UHGV virus genome: UHGV-0247568
Length of the DNA: 64,000 bases
Reading direction: 5' to 3' (one strand)
DNA from: a virus
Part shown: positions 27,760-48,118 of the stretch, piece by piece
How the letters are laid out: each line of letters begins with the position of its first letter
Numbering within the stretch: position 1 is the first letter of the stretch
The notes under the pieces: generated by a model
The model's database searches: none
Told to the model about the DNA's origin: nothing
The model's input: only the letters and a program-made list of their open reading frames with translations
Made by a program: the position numbers and the translations under genes

Positions 27760-29466
27760 TTATAAAATATAAACACCTCTAGATTCGTAAGAAGATGATC
27801 CTTCTTCGATTTCGGTGTTCCATAATGCGATTGCATCAATTGTTGCTGCTAACATATCGATCTTACCAGTCGATTTTTTCTTGTTTACATAACTATTTAA
27901 GTTATTATCGAAAACTTCTCTAGCGTTTGCAACATTTCGTTCAAAAAGAATATTAGGTTCGTATCCAACTTTTTGTTGAAGAACATATTCTTTTAATAAT
28001 TTTGTCGGTGCATGTAAGGTGTTTGAATGTTGTTTCACTTCAATAACGTCATATCCACCTTCTTCATTCCATCTATTTACAGACGAAATTGCATTCCATT
28101 TATCATATCCGATACCAAGAATGTTAACTCCATATTCCTTTTCCAATTTTAAAACAAAATCTTCAACGAATCTATAAGAGATAATTCGATCACCACAAGC
28201 AAAAGCATATCCATTTTCAATCATCATTTGATAATCGATTTTTTCTATTTTGCTTTTTTGATCAACACCCCAGGCTGGAATAAATGCCCAACTTTTTAGA
28301 ATGAACTTATCTTCATAATGATCATAATGGACCATTGCAACAGAAGTATTATCTCCACTTTGAGCTAAATCGACTCCAATATAAACGTCTTTTCCATACC
28401 AATCATACGCACCATCGAGTTTGTTTTTACGCAAATCTTCAGTTCTAATATATACTTCACTATCGTCTCCATCGACGAAAATGTTCATATGTTTAGTCTT
28501 GAAGTTCTTTTGTGCGGATGGCATTTCAATAGCTTTTTTCCTTTGTTGGAAAAGATATTCTTTATTGTCTTCAATATCGATCGCTAAAGGATTAGCTTTT
28601 AAAAGTTCATCATCGTCAGTCCATTTTTTACTATCATCTGGACGATAAAGCATAGCGAATAATTTTTCGTCTTCAATATCTCCGTGGATAACTTTAGTAG
28701 CATAATCTACTTCTTCAGTCATCGGATTATTTAAAGATTCGTAAGCAGTTGAAATTAAAATACCTGTACGATTCACCATGTTCATTTGTGAAGACTTCAT
28801 TGCATCAATAGGATAACGAGTCCTTAATGCTCCAACTTCATCGGCAACGAACACATTCGCTTTACGACCATCCATACGGTTTTCTGACGTCGCTAATGGA
28901 ACAAATTTACTTTTAGTTAATTTACACCGCACTTCACCACGAACAATTTGGAAATGTTTATTGATTAGTGGGCTTTTTTCAATTTGTTGTTCCATTTCTT
29001 TTTTAACGATTGATGATAATTCTCTATCCGGAGCAACAGAATAAAATTCAGAATATTCTGGCTCTATCAAAAGAAGCAAGATAAACAGAAGAGCTACTAA
29101 AAATGTTTTACCACTTTTACGTCCAATCAACAATACTGATTGTTCATATCTTCGTTTTTCAGGCTCATCCTTATATTTCCAACATAAAACATTCATAATA
29201 AAGAACCACTGGAAAGGCGCTAATGAATCTCTAACAGGTTGTCCTTGTCTGATTCCTGAAGCCATATTAATTAGTCCAGTTAACATTGTGATTTTTTTAG
29301 CAAGATTATAATCAAAGAAGAATTTAAAATCTTCATCCTCTTCTTTTGTCAAATCGTTTAAAAATGTTTCACAAATTATTTTAATATCTTTATTAGTTGG
29401 AAATTTGTTTTCCGTAACATCGATGGCATACTTATATGATGGATGGTCTTTAAATGATTCATCCAT
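27760..29466 (-). CDS. terL: terminase large subunit
   Basis: Walker A LLIGRKSGKT. 568-aa ATPase plus nuclease architecture. Located upstream of the portal. RBS ggagg. Confidence 0.85.
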   Translation of the reverse strand: MDESFKDHPSYKYAIDVTENKFPTNKDIKIICETFLNDLTKEEDEDFKFFFDYNLAKKITMLTGLINMASGIRQGQPVRDSLAPFQWFFIMNVLCWKYKDEPEKRRYEQSVLLIGRKSGKTFLVALLFILLLLIEPEYSEFYSVAPDRELSSIVKKEMEQQIEKSPLINKHFQIVRGEVRCKLTKSKFVPLATSENRMDGRKANVFVADEVGALRTRYPIDAMKSSQMNMVNRTGILISTAYESLNNPMTEEVDYATKVIHGDIEDEKLFAMLYRPDDSKKWTDDDELLKANPLAIDIEDNKEYLFQQRKKAIEMPSAQKNFKTKHMNIFVDGDDSEVYIRTEDLRKNKLDGAYDWYGKDVYIGVDLAQSGDNTSVAMVHYDHYEDKFILKSWAFIPAWGVDQKSKIEKIDYQMMIENGYAFACGDRIISYRFVEDFVLKLEKEYGVNILGIGYDKWNAISSVNRWNEEGGYDVIEVKQHSNTLHAPTKLLKEYVLQQKVGYEPNILFERNVANAREVFDNNLNSYVNKKKSTGKIDMLAATIDAIALWNTEIEEGSSSYESRGVYIL

Positions 29467-29504
29467 AAGTAAACCTCCAATTAGATAGCTTTTATTAAGC
29501 TAAA

Positions 29505-29576
29505 CAGGTCGTAGAAGATTCGAACTCCTATCACTTGGGTTGGAGCCAAGTATGTTGCCAATTACACCAACAACCT
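29505..29576 (-). tRNA. tRNA-Trp (anticodon CCA)
   Basis: Hand-folded cloverleaf on the minus strand. Acceptor AGGTTGT/ACGACCT (one G-U). D-stem GTGT/ACAT with a GG-containing loop. Anticodon stem CTTGG/CCAAG with loop CT-CCA-AC (U33, A37). T-arm AGGAG-TTCGAAT-CTTCT. Discriminator G, no encoded CCA. Confidence 0.7.
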
Positions 29577-29826
29577 ATGTGAAACTAAAAAGTTTCACTA
29601 AAAAAAGAAAAAAAGGAAGTTATGACTAGAAAAGTAGAAAGTAGAAAGGTGTTCAGAGAACACAATGATAGCCAATCGGAATCGCACCGATTCAAAAAGG
29701 CTTGTCAACCTTAATGTCTACTAAGAAGCTACCGCATTTAATGTTCCACCTTTAAAGGCAGTGGGACACCTATTTTAAAGTTCCACATTTATGGTAGTGG
29801 GTTACCATATGTCTCAATTGCTGATA

Positions 29827-30123
29827 TTATTTATTGGCGCTTGGTTTGTAACCAATTAATTTGCGCAGAGTTTTGCCTTCATCATTCAATAGCCAAACAG
29901 CTACAATTTTAAAGTCTTCATAATAAGCATTGTCTAGCAATTTTATATTCAAACCATTTTCATCATGAGTGAATACCATTGGATGAGATGATTTATTTGA
30001 AACAACTGTTTTGTTAATGTCAGTTCCAGTTGCGGTGATACCTGCAATATAATCAACTCGTAATGTTGCTGCTTTCTTATTATTAATTTCCTCTTTACTG
30101 AACTTGTCAATTTGTAATAACAT
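29827..30123 (-). CDS. hypothetical protein (98 aa) between terS and terL
   Basis: ORF only. Confidence 0.4.
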   Translation of the reverse strand: MLLQIDKFSKEEINNKKAATLRVDYIAGITATGTDINKTVVSNKSSHPMVFTHDENGLNIKLLDNAYYEDFKIVAVWLLNDEGKTLRKLIGYKPSANK

Positions 30124-30266
30124 ATAAAATCTCTCCTATCTTTCTGTCTAATTAATAATATGTTATATATTATGTAGGCAGACTAACAAAAAACCTAAAA
30201 CATTAGTCTGAGTTTTTTAAAGGTATCCAGTTTTAAAATCGAAATATAATGCGACCGTTTCGGTCT

Positions 30267-30759
30267 CTATGATTTCAATGCGGCTAACAGCGGATCTTCT
30301 TCCTCTTCTTTTGCCTCGACTTTAAGTTGGCTTAAACTAGCCCTTGCTGAAGGAGATAATCCAAGTTGTCCACACAAAGCTCTATATTGTGTTAAATATG
30401 CTAATTTCGTTTTTACCATTGGATGTTCTTTTGGAATTGTATTTCCAAACTTATCATAAGAATCATATTTGATTCCTTCACGAGCTAAAATTTCATCAGC
30501 TTGTTTCATTTTTGAAAGACAATCAGCTGTTTGTGATAATAACGGTACGTCTAAATTAGACAAAAATCCTGATTCGCTGAATTCATTAATTAGAAATTGA
30601 TAATATTCTTGGGCATAATCGTCTATATCGTCTGGAACAATCCACACTAAATCGTCATTTCCTGCCATTTCTTTTTCAACTTCTGCTCGTTCGTTTAAAT
30701 CTTCTTTTGTTTCACTTTTACCAGCTTTAACTGTTGCTGGTTTTCTAGGGTCGTGCCAT
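30267..30759 (-). CDS. terS: terminase small subunit, P27 family. As sequenced, a +1 shift at the CCC run (plus-strand GGG 30748-30750) is needed to join the start ATG-GCA-CGA-CCC to the main frame
   Basis: The body ends SNLDVPLL…YRALCGQLGLSPSARASL, the P27-family C-terminal signature. The main frame continues upstream of the annotated Met (30668) as …HDPRKPATVKAGKSETKEDLNERAEVEKE, matching the basic family N-terminus, but it has no start codon. An ATG at 30759-30757 (TAATG overlap with the GIY-YIG stop) reads MARP* in the +1 frame. Removing one C gives MARPRKPATVKAG…, a 164-aa typical TerS. Confidence 0.6.
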
Positions 30760-31496
30760 TACAGCATCACCACCTTGCTTAAATATTCTTCTTTTGTAAT
30801 TGTTTCAAAAATCATATCTTTATAAAACTTTTTAGATAGTCCATATTTTACATTTATGTCGCTATATTTCTTTTTAAAATCATTTCTAGAGCTAAAGTAT
30901 TCGACTCTTCCATCTTTAAAAGATACTTTAAGCGGAATTTTACATTTGTTTTTTAAATATAACTCGGTGTTATCTATGATAGTTTCTTTCTTCATTCCTT
31001 TATTCCAAGGAATATTACCTTTCAAACTATCACTTATTTTGGATCGAGTTTCTTCTGAATGATTTTTACCAAGCATTGGGTGTATTCCTTTTTCTCCAGA
31101 TTTATACATAGGATTATTCGGACCAACACCAATGTTCTTTTCTTTTCGTGTTTTAATCATTCTATTATAAATGTCTTTCTTTTCAGAATCTGGAAGGAAC
31201 TTAATTAAATATCCACCTTCTCCTCCTGCAGCTACATTATAAGAATTTTCTCTATATTTATTTATAAAGAAAATTTCTTGAGCGTTTAATTCTTCTTCAG
31301 AGAAGCACCAACATATAATTTCATTTTTAAAGTTGTTTATTCCATATTTTTTAATAGCGTGTTTTAAGATCTTTCCGCTACCAAAATATTTTTCATCAAT
31401 ATTTTTAGTTTCTCTTTTGTGTTTTCCAATATATACTTTATTATTAATTAAGTTGGTGGTTTTATAGATATAACCAAATGGATTTGCCATATTCAT
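30759..31496 (-). CDS. GIY-YIG homing endonuclease (I-TevI/Seg-like, with NUMOD3-type DNA-binding repeats)
   Basis: N-terminal GYIYKTTNLINNKVYIGKH…YFGSG GIY-YIG motif. Repeated NPMYKSGEKGIHPMLGKNHSEETRSKIS NUMOD3-like motifs. Confidence 0.75.
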   Translation of the reverse strand: MNMANPFGYIYKTTNLINNKVYIGKHKRETKNIDEKYFGSGKILKHAIKKYGINNFKNEIICWCFSEEELNAQEIFFINKYRENSYNVAAGGEGGYLIKFLPDSEKKDIYNRMIKTRKEKNIGVGPNNPMYKSGEKGIHPMLGKNHSEETRSKISDSLKGNIPWNKGMKKETIIDNTELYLKNKCKIPLKVSFKDGRVEYFSSRNDFKKKYSDINVKYGLSKKFYKDMIFETITKEEYLSKVVML

Positions 31497-31502
31497 TCCT
31501 CC

Positions 31503-31919
31503 TTATAAATTAAACGAATCGTCAACTGGTGGCTCCCAATCAAAATCGATACCATTTAATCCTAGTTGAATATTGCAAGTCTTACATAAAGTTATAATAT
31601 TATCTTCTTCAAATGTTAATTCCGGATAATAAATACGTGGCTTAATGTGGTGAACTTGTAATTGATCACCATTAATAATGTTGTATTTAATATAGCAACG
31701 TTGGCAAATATGATTATCTCTTGCAATAATTCTTAATCTTAATTTTCTCCATCTTCGAGATTCTAATGGTTTTAAAGTTTCAATATTTTTTCTTCTATAT
31801 TCTCGACGTCGAGCATTTGACTCTTGTCTTGCTTTTTCTTTTCCAGGACAATTATGTTTAGAATCTGCTATTTTGCCGCAATATCGACAGATCGTTTTTC
31901 TCTCCGGCATTTTCAGCAA
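31503..31919 (-). CDS. HNH endonuclease (terminase-associated type)
   Basis: HNH motif NHICQRC…QVHHIKP…NIITLCKTCN with zinc-ligand Cys pairs. Sits upstream of terS, as in cos-type HNH phages. Confidence 0.75.
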   Translation of the reverse strand: MLKMPERKTICRYCGKIADSKHNCPGKEKARQESNARRREYRRKNIETLKPLESRRWRKLRLRIIARDNHICQRCYIKYNIINGDQLQVHHIKPRIYYPELTFEEDNIITLCKTCNIQLGLNGIDFDWEPPVDDSFNL

Positions 31920-33199: not shown

Positions 33200-34586
33200 T
33201 TTTTTATTAAATTTTTAATTTTTATATTATATAACGCCACACACTGGTTACCCCTAAGAAACGTTTTGGTACCTGGTGTGTGGCGAAAACTCAATAACGT
33301 ATTACCAGGAATTTCGCCTTTTTTCCTGAGGACAGTGCGGGCTATTTCGTCGACCGATGCGGATGGGTTGGTAGCCATTTCACACCCTCAGGACAAAAAT
33401 AATGAATGACTGAACACACTTTAATGCATTAATGATTGATGTGATGACACAGCACATACGTTGCACACATAAAGTTGAAGCAAGAAGTAAAAGTGTTTCA
33501 CTGTCAGTCACTCTCAAGCTGTCTATACTCACTATAGTAGATATATCCTACACACCCTCAAGACGTCCCTCAGACATACCTCAGACACTACCCCTGTCTA
33601 CTATAATCTATATAATACACTACTATGATATAATATAACAATAATATGTACTATTATGCTGTATATGTACACTATATAATGTACGTATAATGTACACCCT
33701 GAGTACACATATAATATATATTATATATTTTGTGGTGCATATATGCTGTTATTATGTAGCTGATATGCAATATATATAAATAATGTGTACACACTATGTA
33801 CATTATAGTGATGCAATATTATAGTGCAACAATATACTGACTTTATATATAATATATAATCTATATACGTGCTATATGGTATAATGGTATACTGTACCAT
33901 ATTTTACCTGATATATATGGCATGTTATATACGGCTATCTATATACGGGTATATACATGGGTATATAGGTACTCCATGGTGTATATGTGCCTATCCTTAT
34001 AGACGATATATGGTATATATAATAAAAGGATTATGACCAACTCCATGGAGTAGATAACAGATATTTATTGCATACATTTTTGCGAAGCAAAATGTATGCT
34101 CCTTACGTTTTGCGAAGCAAAAACGTAAGGATTGGTAACTGCTTACTATTCCTCTTAAATATACAAATTCCTCTTATTCTAATATAAAATATCAAATAGT
34201 CTAATATATAATAATATCTCCCTCTTTGATGTTTACACCTCCATGGTGTATAGTGTAAAATATCAAATATACTAATCTATATATATAGGATTCGGTGTTT
34301 TTGTGATTTTACAGTTTACAGTTGACAGTTAGTATGATATAATATAATTATCTTAAATATGAGGAGATGAGCTGAATTTGAATTAGTTAAAGGACGTTTT
34401 AAAGTTGGAGACAGATTTAGACACATTCGTTATGGAAACTTGAATGTATTAAAAATTATAGAAGTCAGAGAATATGAGAGACATTTGCCAAACTATAGAG
34501 TGATTAGTGAAAATAATGGCTATAAATATTTGATTAGTGAAGATGAGTTAGTGAAATATCCAATTATTAGAAATGAGGAATAAATT
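33200..34586. other. 1.4-kb ORF-poor region with three parts: a GC-rich structured element (33228-33400), an AT/TA-rich iteron block (33600-34030) and twin palindromes capped by GCGAAGC mini-hairpins (34071-34130). Candidate replication origin and/or packaging region
   Basis: No credible ORF. Long hairpins cgccacacac…gtgtgtggcg and tcctgagg…cctcagga. Repeats (g)ggtatata and tatacgg. Four CCATGG copies. Palindromes catacatttt-TGCGAAGCA-aaatgtatg and ccttacgtttt-GCGAAGC-aaaaacgtaagg. Confidence 0.45.
34315..34343 (+). promoter_or_regulatory. promoter TTTACA-N17-TGaTATAAT
   Basis: TTTACA 34315-34320, TATAAT 34338-34343. A second TTTACA lies 7 nt upstream. Confidence 0.5.
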
Positions 34587-40445: not shown

Positions 40446-41735
40446 TTGATGAAATGGTTTGAAATTTTAGAAGAAGTTAGTTTTGCAAAAGGTAAAGAAA
40501 AAGTTGAAGTATTGAAAAAACATAAAGATGCAGCATTATTACCAGAGATTTTAAATTTTTTATATAATCCACGAATTGTTACTGGAATTAGTAAAAAGAA
40601 AATGGGTAAAGAATTAGAAATTTCAAAAACAGTTGAAATTCCTGATGAGAACCATAGAGTAGCTTCAATAATGGAATATTTACATGAAAATAATACTGGA
40701 AAAGATCAAGATTTAATTTTTGTAAAATCTATTATTGAATCAACTGACGATATGAAGGAACGTCAATTTTTGGAATCTTTAGTTGTAAAAGATATGCCAA
40801 TTGGAATTAGTGCGAATTCAGTTAATAAAGTATGGCCAAAATTAATTCCAGTTTTTAAATTACAAAAAGGACAATTATTTGAAGGCTCATTTGAAGGACC
40901 ACAAATTGTATCATTAAAAATTGATGGCAATAGTGCAACAGTTTTTAATTTAGAAGAGAAAACTTATATGCTTTCAAGAAGTGGCGCTATTATGGAAGGT
41001 TTTGACCATATTCTCAATTATTATCGTCATATTCTACCTTTTGGATATGTTTATCAAGGTGAATTAATTGCGAAAAATTATAATAATTTAGACCATGGAG
41101 AATTATTCCGTTATTCAAATGGTATTACAAACAGTAAGAAAAACGATGAAAAGACAATGTTACAACACGTAGTATTTGACGTAATTCCCATTGAGGATTT
41201 TGAAAAAGGAAAGAGTGACATGGTTTATATTGATAGAATCTCAATTGCGCAGTCTTGCGTTGAGGAATATCAACCATACGGAGAAACGTATAAAAACGTC
41301 TGTGTTGTGCCTTTCTATTCTCATACGACAAAAATTGAAAATATTATGAATTTAGCAAATGAAGTGATTAAAGATGGATTAGAAGGTTTGATGATTTGTA
41401 CGTCAGATTCCAAATATAAAGTTGGTAAACAAAAGTGGCTGCAAAAAGTTAAAGAGTTTAACGCAATGGACTTAGAAGTTATTGACATAAAAGAGCACGT
41501 TCGTGGTGGGAAAGTTGGAGCTCTTATTGTAAATTATAAAAATAATGAAATCGGTGTTGGCGGAATTACTGATGAATTAAGAGAAAAATGGTGGAATAAT
41601 CCGAATGAAATCATTGGTAAGATTATTGAAGTAAAATATTTCCGCTCCACGGCGGATAAAAATGGAAAAGAATCACTCCGTTTTCCTACTTTCGTCCGTG
41701 TACGTGATGATAAATTTGAAGAAAGTTTTGATTAA
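40446..41735 (+). CDS. ATP-dependent DNA ligase
   Basis: Adenylation motif I VSLKIDGNSATV (KxDG), motif-V-like region, then an OB-fold domain. 429 aa. Confidence 0.75.
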   Translation: MMKWFEILEEVSFAKGKEKVEVLKKHKDAALLPEILNFLYNPRIVTGISKKKMGKELEISKTVEIPDENHRVASIMEYLHENNTGKDQDLIFVKSIIESTDDMKERQFLESLVVKDMPIGISANSVNKVWPKLIPVFKLQKGQLFEGSFEGPQIVSLKIDGNSATVFNLEEKTYMLSRSGAIMEGFDHILNYYRHILPFGYVYQGELIAKNYNNLDHGELFRYSNGITNSKKNDEKTMLQHVVFDVIPIEDFEKGKSDMVYIDRISIAQSCVEEYQPYGETYKNVCVVPFYSHTTKIENIMNLANEVIKDGLEGLMICTSDSKYKVGKQKWLQKVKEFNAMDLEVIDIKEHVRGGKVGALIVNYKNNEIGVGGITDELREKWWNNPNEIIGKIIEVKYFRSTADKNGKESLRFPTFVRVRDDKFEESFD

Positions 41736-47086: not shown

Positions 47087-48118
47087 ATGGCAGGATACGC
47101 AGAAAACACAATGTTTTTTGGTCAAATTGATGGAAAAACATTGAATAGTTTGGGTAAATTAGATAGAAGTGTAAAAACATTAAAAGACAGATCAAAACAA
47201 GTAAACGATATTATTGATTCAACTAATTATTTTGTTGAATATTTATCAAAATATTATAAAGTAAGTATTAATGCAAATGAAGCAACAAGTGAAGACGTTG
47301 ATATTTTTAAATACTTAGAAAGAATGGCAACATATTTATTAAATAGTGATGAATCTATTGCTTTAGATAAAGCAGAACAAAAAACATATATTTTCCATAA
47401 TCAAACAATGCAAAAATATTTAGATCGTGAAAAAATTAATGTAAATAATAGCAATGGACAAGAAAATATTGTTGATTCTGAAAATGTTGTCCACGCTTTA
47501 TTAGCTAAAAAACAAAACAGTCGAAAATTAAAAGTTCAAACAATTACAGTTGAGGATTTAAAACGCAATGACAAAGTTGGCGAAATTTTAAGAGAATATC
47601 AACTAATGCTCAATGCCATTGACAAAAAGCTTAGTGAACCGCAAGATAAAAAATGGGCAATATACACAAGACAAAAATATTTAGTAAAACAAGATATGGT
47701 TGATGCAAAAGATATGTTGCTCGGTGTATGGGGCTACAACACTAATTTTAAAGAATCACATATTCCAGATTTAGACATTTTTGATTTTACAGACTTTAAA
47801 ACAGTTAAATATTTACTAACATTTAGTAAGCCAAATGTGTCAGAGAATGAAGATATGTGGTGTGTTTGGCAAGACTTTATTGAAACAGTTAAAAAAGCTA
47901 ATTTAACTCAAGAGGAATTGGAAATTTTTAAGTGTTTACAAGATGGGTGGAAATTACAAGAAATTAGTGATGAGTTTGGTATTAAATACCATGGACTTTA
48001 CCAAACAACAATCCCAAGAATCGCTAAAAAGATCATGAAGGTTGGTAACAAATATGATTGTACTGATCCTAAAATAAAAGAGAAAATTAATAACCGAAAA
48101 GAAAAAGCCAAATCATAA
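47087..48118 (+). CDS. putative transcription regulator with a C-terminal sigma-70 region-4 / LuxR-like HTH (candidate late-gene activator or phage sigma factor)
   Basis: C-terminus LTQEELEIFKCLQDGWKLQEISDEFGIKYHGLYQTTIPRIAKKI resembles sigma region 4.2. The rest is not recognised. Confidence 0.35.
   Translation: MAGYAENTMFFGQIDGKTLNSLGKLDRSVKTLKDRSKQVNDIIDSTNYFVEYLSKYYKVSINANEATSEDVDIFKYLERMATYLLNSDESIALDKAEQKTYIFHNQTMQKYLDREKINVNNSNGQENIVDSENVVHALLAKKQNSRKLKVQTITVEDLKRNDKVGEILREYQLMLNAIDKKLSEPQDKKWAIYTRQKYLVKQDMVDAKDMLLGVWGYNTNFKESHIPDLDIFDFTDFKTVKYLLTFSKPNVSENEDMWCVWQDFIETVKKANLTQEELEIFKCLQDGWKLQEISDEFGIKYHGLYQTTIPRIAKKIMKVGNKYDCTDPKIKEKINNRKEKAKS

Follow-up and report, generated by a model that had tools for sequence, protein, structure and literature searches.

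The long non-coding stretch of a Vipetofemvirus genome as the probable junction of both chromosome ends and the leader of the early operon

Introduction

What does a phage keep in about 1.4 kb of DNA that seems to encode no protein? A sequence-only reading of a 64,000-nt window (the whole stretch of DNA analysed here, from the viral genome UHGV-0247568) had described positions 33200-34586 as free of open reading frames and as a candidate replication origin or packaging site. The window was found to belong to an Enterococcus siphophage of the genus Vipetofemvirus, with 98% identity to vB_EfaS_140 and ~83% to VPE25. Over the stretch itself, identity was 98.3% to vB_EfaS_140, 97% to nattely, and 76-83% to VPE25, VFW, vipetofem, and vB_EfKM29; vipetofem and nattely were the sole returns from exact-pattern scans of IMG/VR. 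The 532-aa helicase was confined to Vipetofemvirus in tblastn searches and was therefore unusable as a handle on distant relatives. The findings presented below indicated that the stretch is very probably the junction of both phage chromosome ends, followed by the untranslated leader of the early operon. The type of element is ordinary; the cos site is new for this phage group, for which the literature has "circularly permuted" DNA.

Extent and composition of the stretch

The stretch was confirmed as the only long non-coding one in the window, with no non-coding gap of more than ~400 nt elsewhere. It was free of open reading frames only up to position 34376, because a conserved 68-aa gene, the first of the early operon, comes next (Table 1). 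The start codon of this gene is TTG in six relatives and reads TTT in the window, making the gene invisible to an ORF scan. The composition was as first described: G+C content was 46-52% at ~33250-33400 compared with ~30% across the window, both hairpins of this segment were real, and of all 59 TATATA hexamers in the window, 21 fell inside 950 nt in the TA-rich block with its short repeats. Tandem arrays were present as well. The two adjacent palindromes centered on GCGAAGC were also present at 34070-34130. Four CCATGG motifs had been claimed for the region, and three were counted (33974, 34043, and 34241).

Table 1. Positions of features in and near the non-coding stretch (window coordinates).
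Feature	Position	Strand	Remarks
Packaging gene block	27760..31919	-	order HNH-(GIY-YIG)-TerS-tRNA-TerL-portal
TerL	27760-29466	-	HK97-like
tRNA-Trp	29505-29576		sole Rfam (Rfam 15) match at gathering threshold
TerS	30267-30755	-	PF05119 (P27-family), E = 2.7e-16; frameshifted in window
GIY-YIG homing endonuclease, inserted	30759-31496	-	
HNH endonuclease	31503-31919	-	PF01844, E = 4.9e-9
Hairpin 1, inverted repeat directly left of cut	33235..33285	+	arms 33235-33252 / 33268-33285; candidate terminase recognition element
Box CGTTTTGGTAC in hairpin 1 3' arm	33262-33272	+	conserved across genera (Denvervirus, lineage L025); 19-29 nt left of cut
cosN, inferred 10-nt 3' cohesive end 5'-TCAATAACGT-3'	33291..33300	+	nicks: bottom strand 33290/33291, top strand 33300/33301
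Core AAYAACGTATTAYC across top-strand nick	33293..33306	+	invariant in Vipetofemvirus vs Denvervirus alignment
CGCCTTTTTTCCTGA with T6/A6 tract	33315..33329	+	tract +19 to +24 from top-strand nick (33319-33324)
Hairpin 2, branched GC-rich inverted repeat right of cut	33324..33393	+	outer stem 33324-33331 / 33386-33393
CCTCAGAC-type repeats, 11-nt period	33556..33592	+	CCTCAGACATA x3.2 (TRF); partly conserved among relatives
Further CCTCAGAC-type copies	33381-33394, 33693-33706	+	
TATATA-rich repeat block	33597..34030	.	includes 12-nt-period array
Period-12 array TATATACGGGTA x3.3	33926-33967		inside TATATA-rich block
CTCCATGG boxes	33971, 34040, 34238		
Twin 30-nt palindromes	34070-34099, 34101-34130	.	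each capped by GCGAAGC (C-GAA-G mini-hairpin); centers 30 nt apart
Early promoter cluster	34140..34345	+	duplicated 31-nt unit at 34180/34251
Promoter TTTACA-18-TAAAAT	34232-34261	+	
Promoter TTTACA-17-TATAAT	34315-34343	+	near-consensus, upstream TG
Conserved 68-aa gene, first of early operon	34377..34583	+	RBS GAGGAG 34361-34366; annotated in every relative

Fixed chromosome ends and the probable cohesive site

In this phage group, the ends of virion DNA are fixed, with polished right ends at 33290 and polished left ends at 33301. In three public contigs (L031, L035, and L075) derived from at least two sequencing projects, the Illumina adapter ...GCTCTTCCGATCT was joined directly to ATTACCAGG (33301), and three further contigs (L033, L034, and L040) began at 33300/33301. 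On the other side, contig L049 terminated in ...GGCGAAAAC (33290), to which an A-tail and adapter were attached (A + GATCGGAAGAGC / AGATCGGAAGAGCGGTTCAGCAGGA). The opposite end of L040, which is the 86,547-bp metagenome contig NODE_35 of ERZ807347, stopped at 33289/90 (end of L019); contig L032 started at 33291. These junctions were taken from relatives ~83-97% identical over the stretch, among which the site itself was invariant, rather than from reads of the window isolate.

The 10 nt between the two polished ends, TCAATAACGT, would form a 3' single-stranded cohesive end, a polarity that we infer from library chemistry and from relatives: positions 33291-33300 were absent from both polished ends and present in bridging assemblies, the pattern expected if end repair removes a 3' overhang. 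Bridging was common: five assemblies from isolates and numerous metagenomic contigs crossed the cos site uninterrupted, as concatemers, circles, or annealed ends would be expected to produce. A different overhang, the 12 nt between the cuts of the VPE25 and VFW records (33343-33354), was dropped, as the adapter junctions lay 40-50 nt further left.

Five GenBank records of relatives and the 86.5-kb metagenome contig opened inside 33281-33355. The nattely record had a gap at ~33282-33308, and those of vipetofem, VPE25, and VFW opened at 33293, 33342/33343, and 33354/33355, respectively. The Planchet record, a circular contig assembly on which its authors ran PhageTerm, opened at the homologue of 33300/33301. 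That records opened at slightly different places would suit ends formed by a short direct terminal repeat instead of cohesive overhangs, a reading that we consider extremely improbable. A repeat would put left ends to the left of right ends, and the gap of 10 nt (33290 vs 33301), with no overlap, therefore argues against a terminal repeat or distributed ends; trimming, tagmentation loss, and bridging reads account for the scatter among records.

The cohesive site was also under strong constraint. Positions 33275-33300 contained 0 variable columns among 26 distinct related sequences, and cosN, the twin hairpins, and positions 34232-34307 were likewise without a variable column in these sequences, a constraint tighter than that of the flanking genes. 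The third lineage, L025, carried CATAACGTATCG in place of the core AAYAACGTATTAYC, and the cos core was conserved in all three lineages (Vipetofemvirus, Denvervirus, and L025).

The assignment of a cos site contradicts the published description of VPE25 and VFW, which Duerkop et al. (2016) read as circularly permuted; precisely at these contig ends, they had reported ambiguous bases and low coverage. Their observation would fit headful (pac) packaging of circularly permuted, terminally redundant DNA, with the region as a mere pac or assembly-break site. Such packaging is nevertheless very unlikely here: the adapter junctions fell at one single base per side in several independent libraries, six assemblies broke within ~75 nt of an 86-kb genome, TerL belonged to the HK97/cos clade and had an HNH partner, and cos ends have been mapped in the relative 6ec. 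The papers on Planchet, vB_EfaS_140, VPE25, and 9183 do not state cos ends. The proposal of an origin or packaging site for the whole stretch was thus borne out for packaging in the GC-rich part, where the termini lie between the two hairpins, and not in the TA/iteron block or the twin palindromes; these are found 300-830 nt in from the left chromosome end and do not hold the cut site.

Elements flanking the cut

Inverted repeats stood on both sides of the cut. Hairpin 1 had a DNA fold of -13.9 kcal/mol (z = -4.2); its 3' arm was invariant in 17 variants, and the changes in its 5' arm were G-T wobbles on the + strand only. The long stem of hairpin 1 was missing from Denvervirus. To the right of the cut, TTTTTT-CTG was invariant across genera (Vipetofemvirus, Denvervirus, and L025), and hairpin 2, which had one compensated pair (G-C / G-T / A-T), was almost invariant in its interior (33338-33376). 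By analogy with HK97, in which TerS binds at positions 15-29, CGCCTTTTTTCCTGA may be regarded as a candidate TerS-binding site. The PF05119 small terminase would then be placed on the conserved flanks, which comprise hairpin 1 with the CGTTTTGGTAC box to the left of the cut and hairpin 2 with the T6 tract to its right.

In covariation tests of both hairpins, on sets of 8 and 17 sequences, pairing was kept in 99.6% of cells, which was no better than in shuffles. The stem changes were all one-sided transitions, and as 12 of the 17 paired positions were A or C, the six wobble-compatible sites were not significant.

The GC-rich segment at 33228-33400 had also been put forward as the source of a small RNA, a suggestion that found little support. 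Folding was in its favor: the + strand of 33225-33410 as a whole had z = -3.8, beating both shuffles and the - strand (z = -2.6), all one-sided stem changes were G-U-compatible on the + strand only, and one pair varied as G-C / G-U / A-U. A structured RNA encoded on the + strand is nonetheless improbable, as covariation stayed within shuffles (84 of 500 reached the observed score), the element is divided between the two chromosome ends in the virion, and Denvervirus has no hairpin 1. Searches of the region with Rfam 15, at the gathering threshold and at a permissive E <= 10, and with ARAGORN (tRNA/tmRNA) yielded no family and no tRNA, the matches at E <= 10 being weak miRNA-model noise. Neither a promoter nor a terminator bracketed the element; a scan of 33200-34586 found no intrinsic terminator, and no T runs followed hairpin 1, hairpin 2, or either palindrome stem.

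Packaging enzymes and comparison with known cos systems

The packaging genes lie to the left of the cut, on the opposite strand from the early operon. TerL matched the HK97 TerL structure 6Z6D (E = 2.6e-12, residues 71-559) and clustered with the terminases of the cos phages Sfi21, phi3626, Cherry, and mEp235; its tblastn relatives also included Efquatrovirus. For TerS, a direct sequence search against solved structures gave no match. The cosN site lay ~1.4 kb past the start of the HNH gene, and a zinc-ribbon gene, a divergent promoter region, and two + strand genes stood between them. The HK97-type large terminase, assisted by the HNH endonuclease, would introduce the staggered nicks, and after injection the ends would anneal and then be sealed. 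The phage encodes its own ATP-dependent ligase.

One close model is the cos system of HK97, in which the 3' overhangs are 10 nt long, cleavage is stimulated by HNH, and TerS binds 15-29 bp from the cut at a site that includes an A-tract (PMC11331095). The window phage shared with HK97 (gp1 TerS, gp2 TerL, gp74 HNH) the proposed overhang length and polarity, full-length TerL homology, an HNH gene beside the terminase genes, and a conserved A/T tract, here ~19-24 bp from the cut. The two differed in layout: HK97 cos lies between HNH and TerS, a typical though not obligatory position in HK97-like phages, whereas the window cos was ~1.4 kb from HNH-TerS with two opposite-strand genes between. The cohesive sequence was also different, large inverted repeats stood beside the window cut, and the window-phage genome measures 86 kb compared with 40 kb for HK97.

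A second mapped system is that of Staphylococcus phage 6ec (Sextaecvirus), with the 10-nt 3' overhang AAGCGCCCCC (PMC4125762). Like the window phage, 6ec is a large siphophage (~90 kb) of low G+C content, and the TerL proteins of the two are related (~50% identity). Its 10-nt 3' overhang is of the length and type proposed for the window, and beside its cut are a ~150-nt GC-rich stretch, hairpins on both sides, and more than 1 kb (1.2 kb) of non-coding TATATA/GTATAT repeats. However, its overhang sequence is unrelated and GC-rich, its neighboring genes point into the repeat block, not out of it as in the window, and twin GNA palindromes were not identified there. The arrangement also resembles lambda cos (cosQ-cosN-cosB) in having a nicking site with recognition elements on both sides, in concatemers that are cut, and in ends that anneal after injection. 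Lambda differs in its 12-nt 5' overhang, in having no HNH partner, in its unrelated terminase families, and in a cosB that directly precedes the terminase genes.

The leader of the early operon

The first 1.07 kb to the right of the cut was non-coding and contained CCTCAG repeats, the TATATA-rich block, two invariant GNA-capped palindromes, and a sigma-70-type promoter cluster. The last three of these are the leader of the early helicase operon. The replication and nucleotide-metabolism genes of VPE25 are early genes (PMC7064774), and the promoter predicted ahead of the early helicase genes was found close to consensus. Transcription of the 68-aa gene and of two SF1 helicase genes would start from the sigma-70-type promoters right of the cut. 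VFW had one 31-nt repeat unit fewer. Predicted promoters were no denser in 32-35 kb than in shuffles (25 found vs 22 expected).

In the TATATA-rich block, the hexamer was ~24-fold enriched, and the block was the most variable part of the stretch in the 26 sequences; a tandem repeat ATGGTATA x2 was also present in the stretch. Analogous TATATA blocks occurred in 9183/Planchet, in L025, and beside the mapped cos of phage 6ec, and the type of period-12 array was found in four lineages. A k-mer search over these four lineages found no shared iteron; all cross-lineage k-mers were of the TATATA type, and the similarity of the repeats is therefore compositional. A similar leader layout recurred in Denvervirus and L025 and partly in 6ec.

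The twin palindromes had a DNA fold of -22 kcal/mol, with z = -6.8 and -7.9, and were invariant in the 26 distinct related sequences. The heptamer GCGAAGC alone was not significantly enriched (5 sites vs 1.8 expected, with 4 of 100 shuffles reaching 5); the significance resides in the two 30-nt palindromes around it. At the same place, Denvervirus had twin palindromes with different stems and with C-GTA-G loops on opposite strands.

Origin or operator

An origin or operator role for the leader is plausible. As an early control or replication-origin module, it would combine repeats, easily melted DNA, and extruding hairpins that could act as entry sites for proteins or primase, and we put this forward, tentatively, as its likeliest role. 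GC skew, which had been recommended as a check, did not discriminate an origin: its minimum at ~32 kb coincided with the switch in gene orientation (~32.0 kb) and was therefore uninformative.

A replication origin in the TA-rich block and twin palindromes (33600-34130) would be compatible with the cos site. Repeats would be bound by an initiator, the TATATA DNA would melt, and the GNA-capped hairpins would serve as single-strand initiation sites (primase/helicase entry), as in RSF1010 oriV or G4. This is a serious possibility, although the balance leans against it. In Vipetofemvirus, Denvervirus, and L025, the same order recurred, namely a 12-nt-period GGnTATATA-type array, ~100 nt of AT-rich DNA, twin palindromes, and a promoter with helicase genes. 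Positions 33602-34001 were the fourth least stable 400-nt duplex in 64 kb, and the palindromes of two genera were self-complementary with different stems and a retained C-GNA-G cap. Mini-hairpins of this kind are known at the G4 origin, RSF1010 ssiA, and N4 promoters (PMC13037366), and the phage has its own primase, a DnaB-like helicase, and two SF1 helicases. Several observations point the other way. The repeat block was the least conserved part of the stretch and shared only its composition between lineages, the hairpins of L025 had no GNA loops, the genes on either side of the 6ec block are directed into it, and the primase and DnaB genes were ~23-25 kb distant. Moreover, no recognizable initiator family stood beside the block: the adjacent 292-aa protein had no Pfam or PHROG match and only spurious sequence matches in the PDB, and its AlphaFold model was of low confidence (mean pLDDT 53).

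The likeness to RSF1010 oriV, which has iterons, an AT-rich region, and ssiA/ssiB hairpins with a CCGAAGG cap, lies in the order of repeats, AT-rich DNA, and two C-GNA-G-capped hairpins in the window; the Denvervirus caps are on opposite strands, as in ssiA/ssiB. Unlike RSF1010, the window repeats were short and poorly conserved, and scans of 18 window proteins against Pfam and 20 against PHROGs turned up neither a RepB'-type primase nor an N4-type RNA polymerase. The likeness to RSF1010, G4, and N4 may reflect a shared way of working, not membership. It is conceivable, if unlikely, that the module, 0.6-0.8 kb inside the early-promoter chromosome end, represents a phage origin of a new type, serving replication or early entry, and that extruded mini-hairpins would admit primase or SF1 helicases in this large Gram-positive siphophage in an RSF1010-ssi-like or N4-like manner. 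Such an origin might be coupled to a genus-specific network of CTCCATGGAG palindromes across the early region.

Alternatively, the twin palindromes and CTCCATGG boxes could be operators for a dimeric phage regulator of the early promoters, with the hairpin potential incidental. The 292-aa neighbor, which has a C-terminal helix-turn-helix-like segment, is one candidate, and the authors of the Planchet genome labeled the neighboring gene a putative transcriptional regulator. The exact 15-mer TTTTGCGAAGCAAAA was repeated at 30 bp, or about three helical turns (29 bp in Denvervirus), the palindromes lay 100-250 nt upstream of promoters, and one of three conserved ACTCCATGG(T/A)G boxes fell within a promoter spacer. 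An operator of this kind is nearly as serious a possibility as an origin, although the balance again leans against it: the 13-14 bp stems differed between the twins in their outer parts, each still self-complementary, which suggests selection on structure and not on a repeated half-site, and the low-confidence model of the candidate regulator also counts against it.

Implications

VPE25 and its relatives are widely used Enterococcus phage models and therapeutic candidates. Assigning the chromosome ends fixes the correct start point of genome records, several of which are incomplete at their ends in GenBank, and the fragment at ~33230-33400 could serve in cos-plasmid or phagemid engineering. 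The conserved leader provides concrete, mutable targets in the search for the origin and the early-gene switch. Conceptually, these implications are not new. If these phages package from a cos site with a defined 10-nt overhang, and not by the permuted headful route as published, the expectation of generalized transduction changes, which bears on the safety of their use in therapy.

Chromosome Ends

Across 33200-34586, the window phage was 98.3% identical to vB_EfaS_140, 97% identical to nattely, and 76-83% identical to VPE25, VFW, vipetofem, and vB_EfKM29, all six being ~86-kb siphophages of the genus Vipetofemvirus, subfamily Andrewesvirinae. The first clue to the chromosome ends was that the GenBank records of relatives open within the GC-rich element. 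The record of 9183 (GenBank MT939241) carried an identical 30 nt at both ends, an assembly overlap. The record of Planchet (Denvervirus), which was assembled as a circle and then analyzed with PhageTerm (PMC11210271), opens directly after ...CAACAACGT with ATTATC..., the homologue of window 33300/33301.

In three public contigs, L031 (ERR1301496), L035 (ERR1301585), and L075 (SRR14017347), a tail ...GCTCTTCCGATCT was joined directly to ATTACCAGG at base 33301, and two further contigs (L033, L034) start at 33300/33301. The last genomic bases of contig L049 (ERR1301509, 28 kb) are ...GGCGAAAAC, up to 33290, with A and GATCGGAAGAGCGGTTCAGCAGGA attached behind them, and another contig from the same run (L032) begins at 33291. 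In the metagenomic contig ERZ807347 NODE_35 (86,547 bp), unrelated sequence runs up to 33300/33301 (L040) and the other end lies at 33289/90 (L019). The strings joined to the genome in L031, L035, L075, and L049 are Illumina adapter sequences. Together, the adapter junctions and contig ends placed the stop of polished right ends at 33290 and the beginning of polished left ends at 33301. The ten bases TCAATAACGT were missing from both polished ends and present in all bridging assemblies. During end repair, 5' overhangs are filled in, which would duplicate bases at both ends, and 3' overhangs are removed; the loss of these ten bases from both ends therefore pointed, by inference, to a 10-nt 3' cohesive end (cosN), its 3' polarity being read from the end-repair pattern. 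The sequence-only reading had offered the whole stretch as a candidate packaging site or origin. The packaging site held for the GC-rich element, where it was sharpened to the base, but not for the rest of the stretch, and the origin reading concerns a different part.

Contigs spanning cos from many independent runs (L027-L029, L044-L046, L061, L063, L066, L067, L071, and L073) had nearly equal lengths of 36.7-37.1 kb, which implies that these genomes have recurrent assembly breakpoints elsewhere, for example at repeats or variable loci.

Features of the cos region and leader, and ends of related records (window positions)
Feature	Position	Remarks
cosN	33291-33300	inferred nicks: bottom strand 33290/33291, top strand 33300/33301
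Hairpin 1	33235-33252 / 33268-33285 (arms)	left of cosN; z = -4.2 folded as DNA
Hairpin 2	33324-33331 / 33386-33393 (outer stem)	right of cosN; branched interior
Conserved box CGTTTTGGTAC	33262-33272	inter-genus comparison
Invariant inter-genus core AAYAACGTATTAYC	33293-33306	Vipetofemvirus vs Denvervirus
Conserved run TTTTTT-CTG	33319-33328	inter-genus comparison
Leader	33400-34376	
CCTCAGAC-type repeats	in leader	
TATATA block	in leader	includes 12-nt-period array
Three conserved ACTCCATGG boxes	in leader	
Twin palindromes	34070-34099 and 34101-34130	each centred on GCGAAGC; z = -6.8 as DNA
Near-consensus extended -10 promoter	34315-34343	
nattely record (GenBank MT119360)	lacks ~33282-33308	~27 nt around cos; 5 foreign bases (TGTCT) at right end
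vipetofem record (GenBank MT119361)	ends 33293	one end is ~550 nt short, with over half of a 287-aa gene missing
VPE25 record	cut 33342/33343	
VFW record	cut 33354/33355	

Terminase Genes and Known cos Systems

The large terminase, TerL, matched the HK97 large terminase structure 6Z6D (E = 2.6e-12), and its neighbours by tblastn (Sfi21, phi3626, Cherry, mEp235, and Efquatrovirus) were classic cos phages. TerS belongs to PF05119 and has an HNH endonuclease (PF01844) upstream, an HK97-type arrangement; in HK97, cos cleavage is stimulated by the HNH protein and leaves 10-nt 3' overhangs (PMC9410871, PMC11331095). The TerL of Staphylococcus phage 6ec is ~50% identical to that of the window phage, and a 10-nt 3' overhang was read from its physical ends (PMC4125762). 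Next to this cut, the 6ec record has a GC-rich stretch of ~150 nt and a 1.2-kb non-coding region of TATATA/GTATAT repeats, and hairpins are annotated on both sides.

Leftward from cosN, HNH, TerS, TerL, and portal follow in the sense orientation, as in lambda or HK97. By analogy with those phages, packaging would begin with the late genes and end with the leader and its early promoters, which would then be the first to enter the host. Genes on the minus strand left of ~32.0 kb encode portal, TerL, tRNA-Trp, TerS, a GIY-YIG homing endonuclease, and HNH, and among the products of the plus-strand genes to the right are two SF1 helicases, an ATP-dependent ligase, a deoxynucleoside kinase, a sigma factor, Sak4, a DnaB-like helicase, a primase, and a RecJ-like protein. 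The phage-encoded DNA ligase (40446-41735) fits the sealing of annealed cos ends, and the phage sigma factor (phrog_5767; 47087-48118) may drive late transcription.

The GIY-YIG/NUMOD3 homing endonuclease (30759-31496, minus strand) is an insertion between HNH and TerS that is not in nattely, VPE25, or most metagenomic relatives; it occupies the same spot in Logan contigs L046 and L050, and 9183 has a different homing endonuclease there. At the TerS start (30741-30755, minus strand), the ATG overlaps the GIY-YIG stop (TAATG), and translation yields MARP and then TAG; at this place the window has ATGGCACGACCCTAGAAAACC and relatives have ATGGCAAGACCAAGAAAACC. One extra base in the window thus puts the gene out of frame beyond codon 4, so that only a 133-aa ORF from an internal Met remains in place of 163 aa. 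The extra base may be a sequencing error; alternatively, the genome may be defective or translation may reinitiate.

Conservation and Structure Around cosN

Among 26 distinct sequences spanning the stretch, no variable columns were found in 33275-33300 (the 3' arm of hairpin 1 and cosN), 34083-34133 (twin palindromes), and 34232-34307. Flanking coding sequence was more variable than these three segments, and 33450-33520 and 33795-33840 varied most. Pieces of hairpin 2 were also conserved between genera. Contigs L025 (Logan SRR27732225_1945, 32.8 kb) and L026 represent a third lineage, with a neighbouring protein 44% identical, the same HNH-TerS-TerL layout, and a 1.3-kb non-coding stretch. L025 retained the cos core and spacing, with two direct copies of GTGTCGACCGGYTGACGACCA upstream of the core. 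A T6 tract occupies positions +19 to +24 relative to the top-strand nick, a suggestive parallel, by analogy, to the A-tract-containing site at +15 to +29 bound by HK97 TerS (PMC11331095).

The GC-rich segment with long hairpins, as first proposed, was borne out by hairpin 1, by a G+C of 46-52% vs ~30% for the genome, and by the fold of 33225-33410 (z = -3.8 on the plus strand, -2.6 on the minus strand). Across 17 variants, pairing was kept in 99.6% of cells; hairpin 1 changed in its 5' arm only and was wobble-compatible on the plus strand only, and one hairpin 2 pair occurred as G-C, G-T, and A-T. That the element encodes a small RNA is very unlikely, as the reading had no Rfam support and is awkward for an element divided between two virion ends. 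Covariation-type measures of both hairpins in the 17 variants were no higher than those of shuffles, and the long stem of hairpin 1 was not found in Denvervirus; the inverted repeats around cosN are therefore probably protein-recognition elements.

Leader, Palindromes, and Promoters

The stretch had been described as free of ORFs, which was true up to 34376 but not beyond, where a 68-aa gene (34377-34583) is annotated in every relative. Its start codon (34377-34379) is TTG in six relatives and TTT in the window, causing it to be missed in the ORF scan. The remaining elements of that description, a TA-rich block with short repeats, twin GCGAAGC-centred palindromes, and a promoter ahead of the first helicase, were all present. 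The TA block held 21 of the 59 TATATA hexamers of the window and several short tandem arrays. The bare heptamer GCGAAGC showed no significant enrichment.

In Denvervirus, the corresponding position also holds a pair of palindromes, spaced 29 nt apart; their stems are different and their C-GTA-G caps lie on opposite strands. That the palindromes remain self-complementary when their sequences differ speaks for selection on structure. C-GNA-G mini-hairpins are unusually stable in DNA. They are found at the G4 origin, RSF1010 ssiA, and N4 hairpin promoters (PMC13037366). As a reasoned guess, an origin role and an operator role for the leader elements are each possible at about the same, rather low, probability; against an origin, the twin hairpins of L025 are GC-rich and lack GNA loops, no initiator gene was recognisable, and the repeat blocks have only composition in common.

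The promoter unit is duplicated in the leader as a 31-nt repeat. VFW has one copy fewer; it lacks ~64 nt (window 34184-34246) between the two copies of this repeat, which would fit a tandem promoter unit having been gained or lost. In VPE25, replication and nucleotide-metabolism genes are early genes (PMC7064774), in keeping with an early promoter cluster in the leader.

CCATGG Excess

Four CCATGG sites had been counted in the region, but only three occur. The whole window holds 40, mostly as CTCCATGGAG, vs 6.0 +/- 2.5 expected, with 36 in 33974-62977 vs 4 in 1-32000 and nearly all in the plus-strand early region. Within ORFs, 32 sites occurred, spread over all three reading frames, where synonymous-codon shuffling gave 8.3 +/- 2.3; such behaviour was seen for no other GC-rich palindromic hexamer. 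The excess is genus-specific: vipetofem has 18 sites in 11.4 kb, and no site occurs in Denvervirus (21.7 kb), L025 (6.8 kb), or 6ec (14.8 kb). A protein-binding network and a modification target are both possibilities. DNA of the 98% identical vB_EfaS_140 reportedly resists several restriction enzymes, and that phage encodes a T4-like beta-glucosyltransferase (PMC7820071). The DNA of the window phage is probably hypermodified, which, if true, may affect sequencing coverage and the CCATGG excess.

Implications for Vipetofemvirus

The site is a cos site of known type, none having been reported before for Vipetofemvirus in the literature searched. The contig ends of VPE25 and VFW showed low coverage and ambiguous bases, which were read by the authors as circular permutation (PMC4999554). 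The fixed ends contradict this published description of VPE25 and VFW as permuted genomes.
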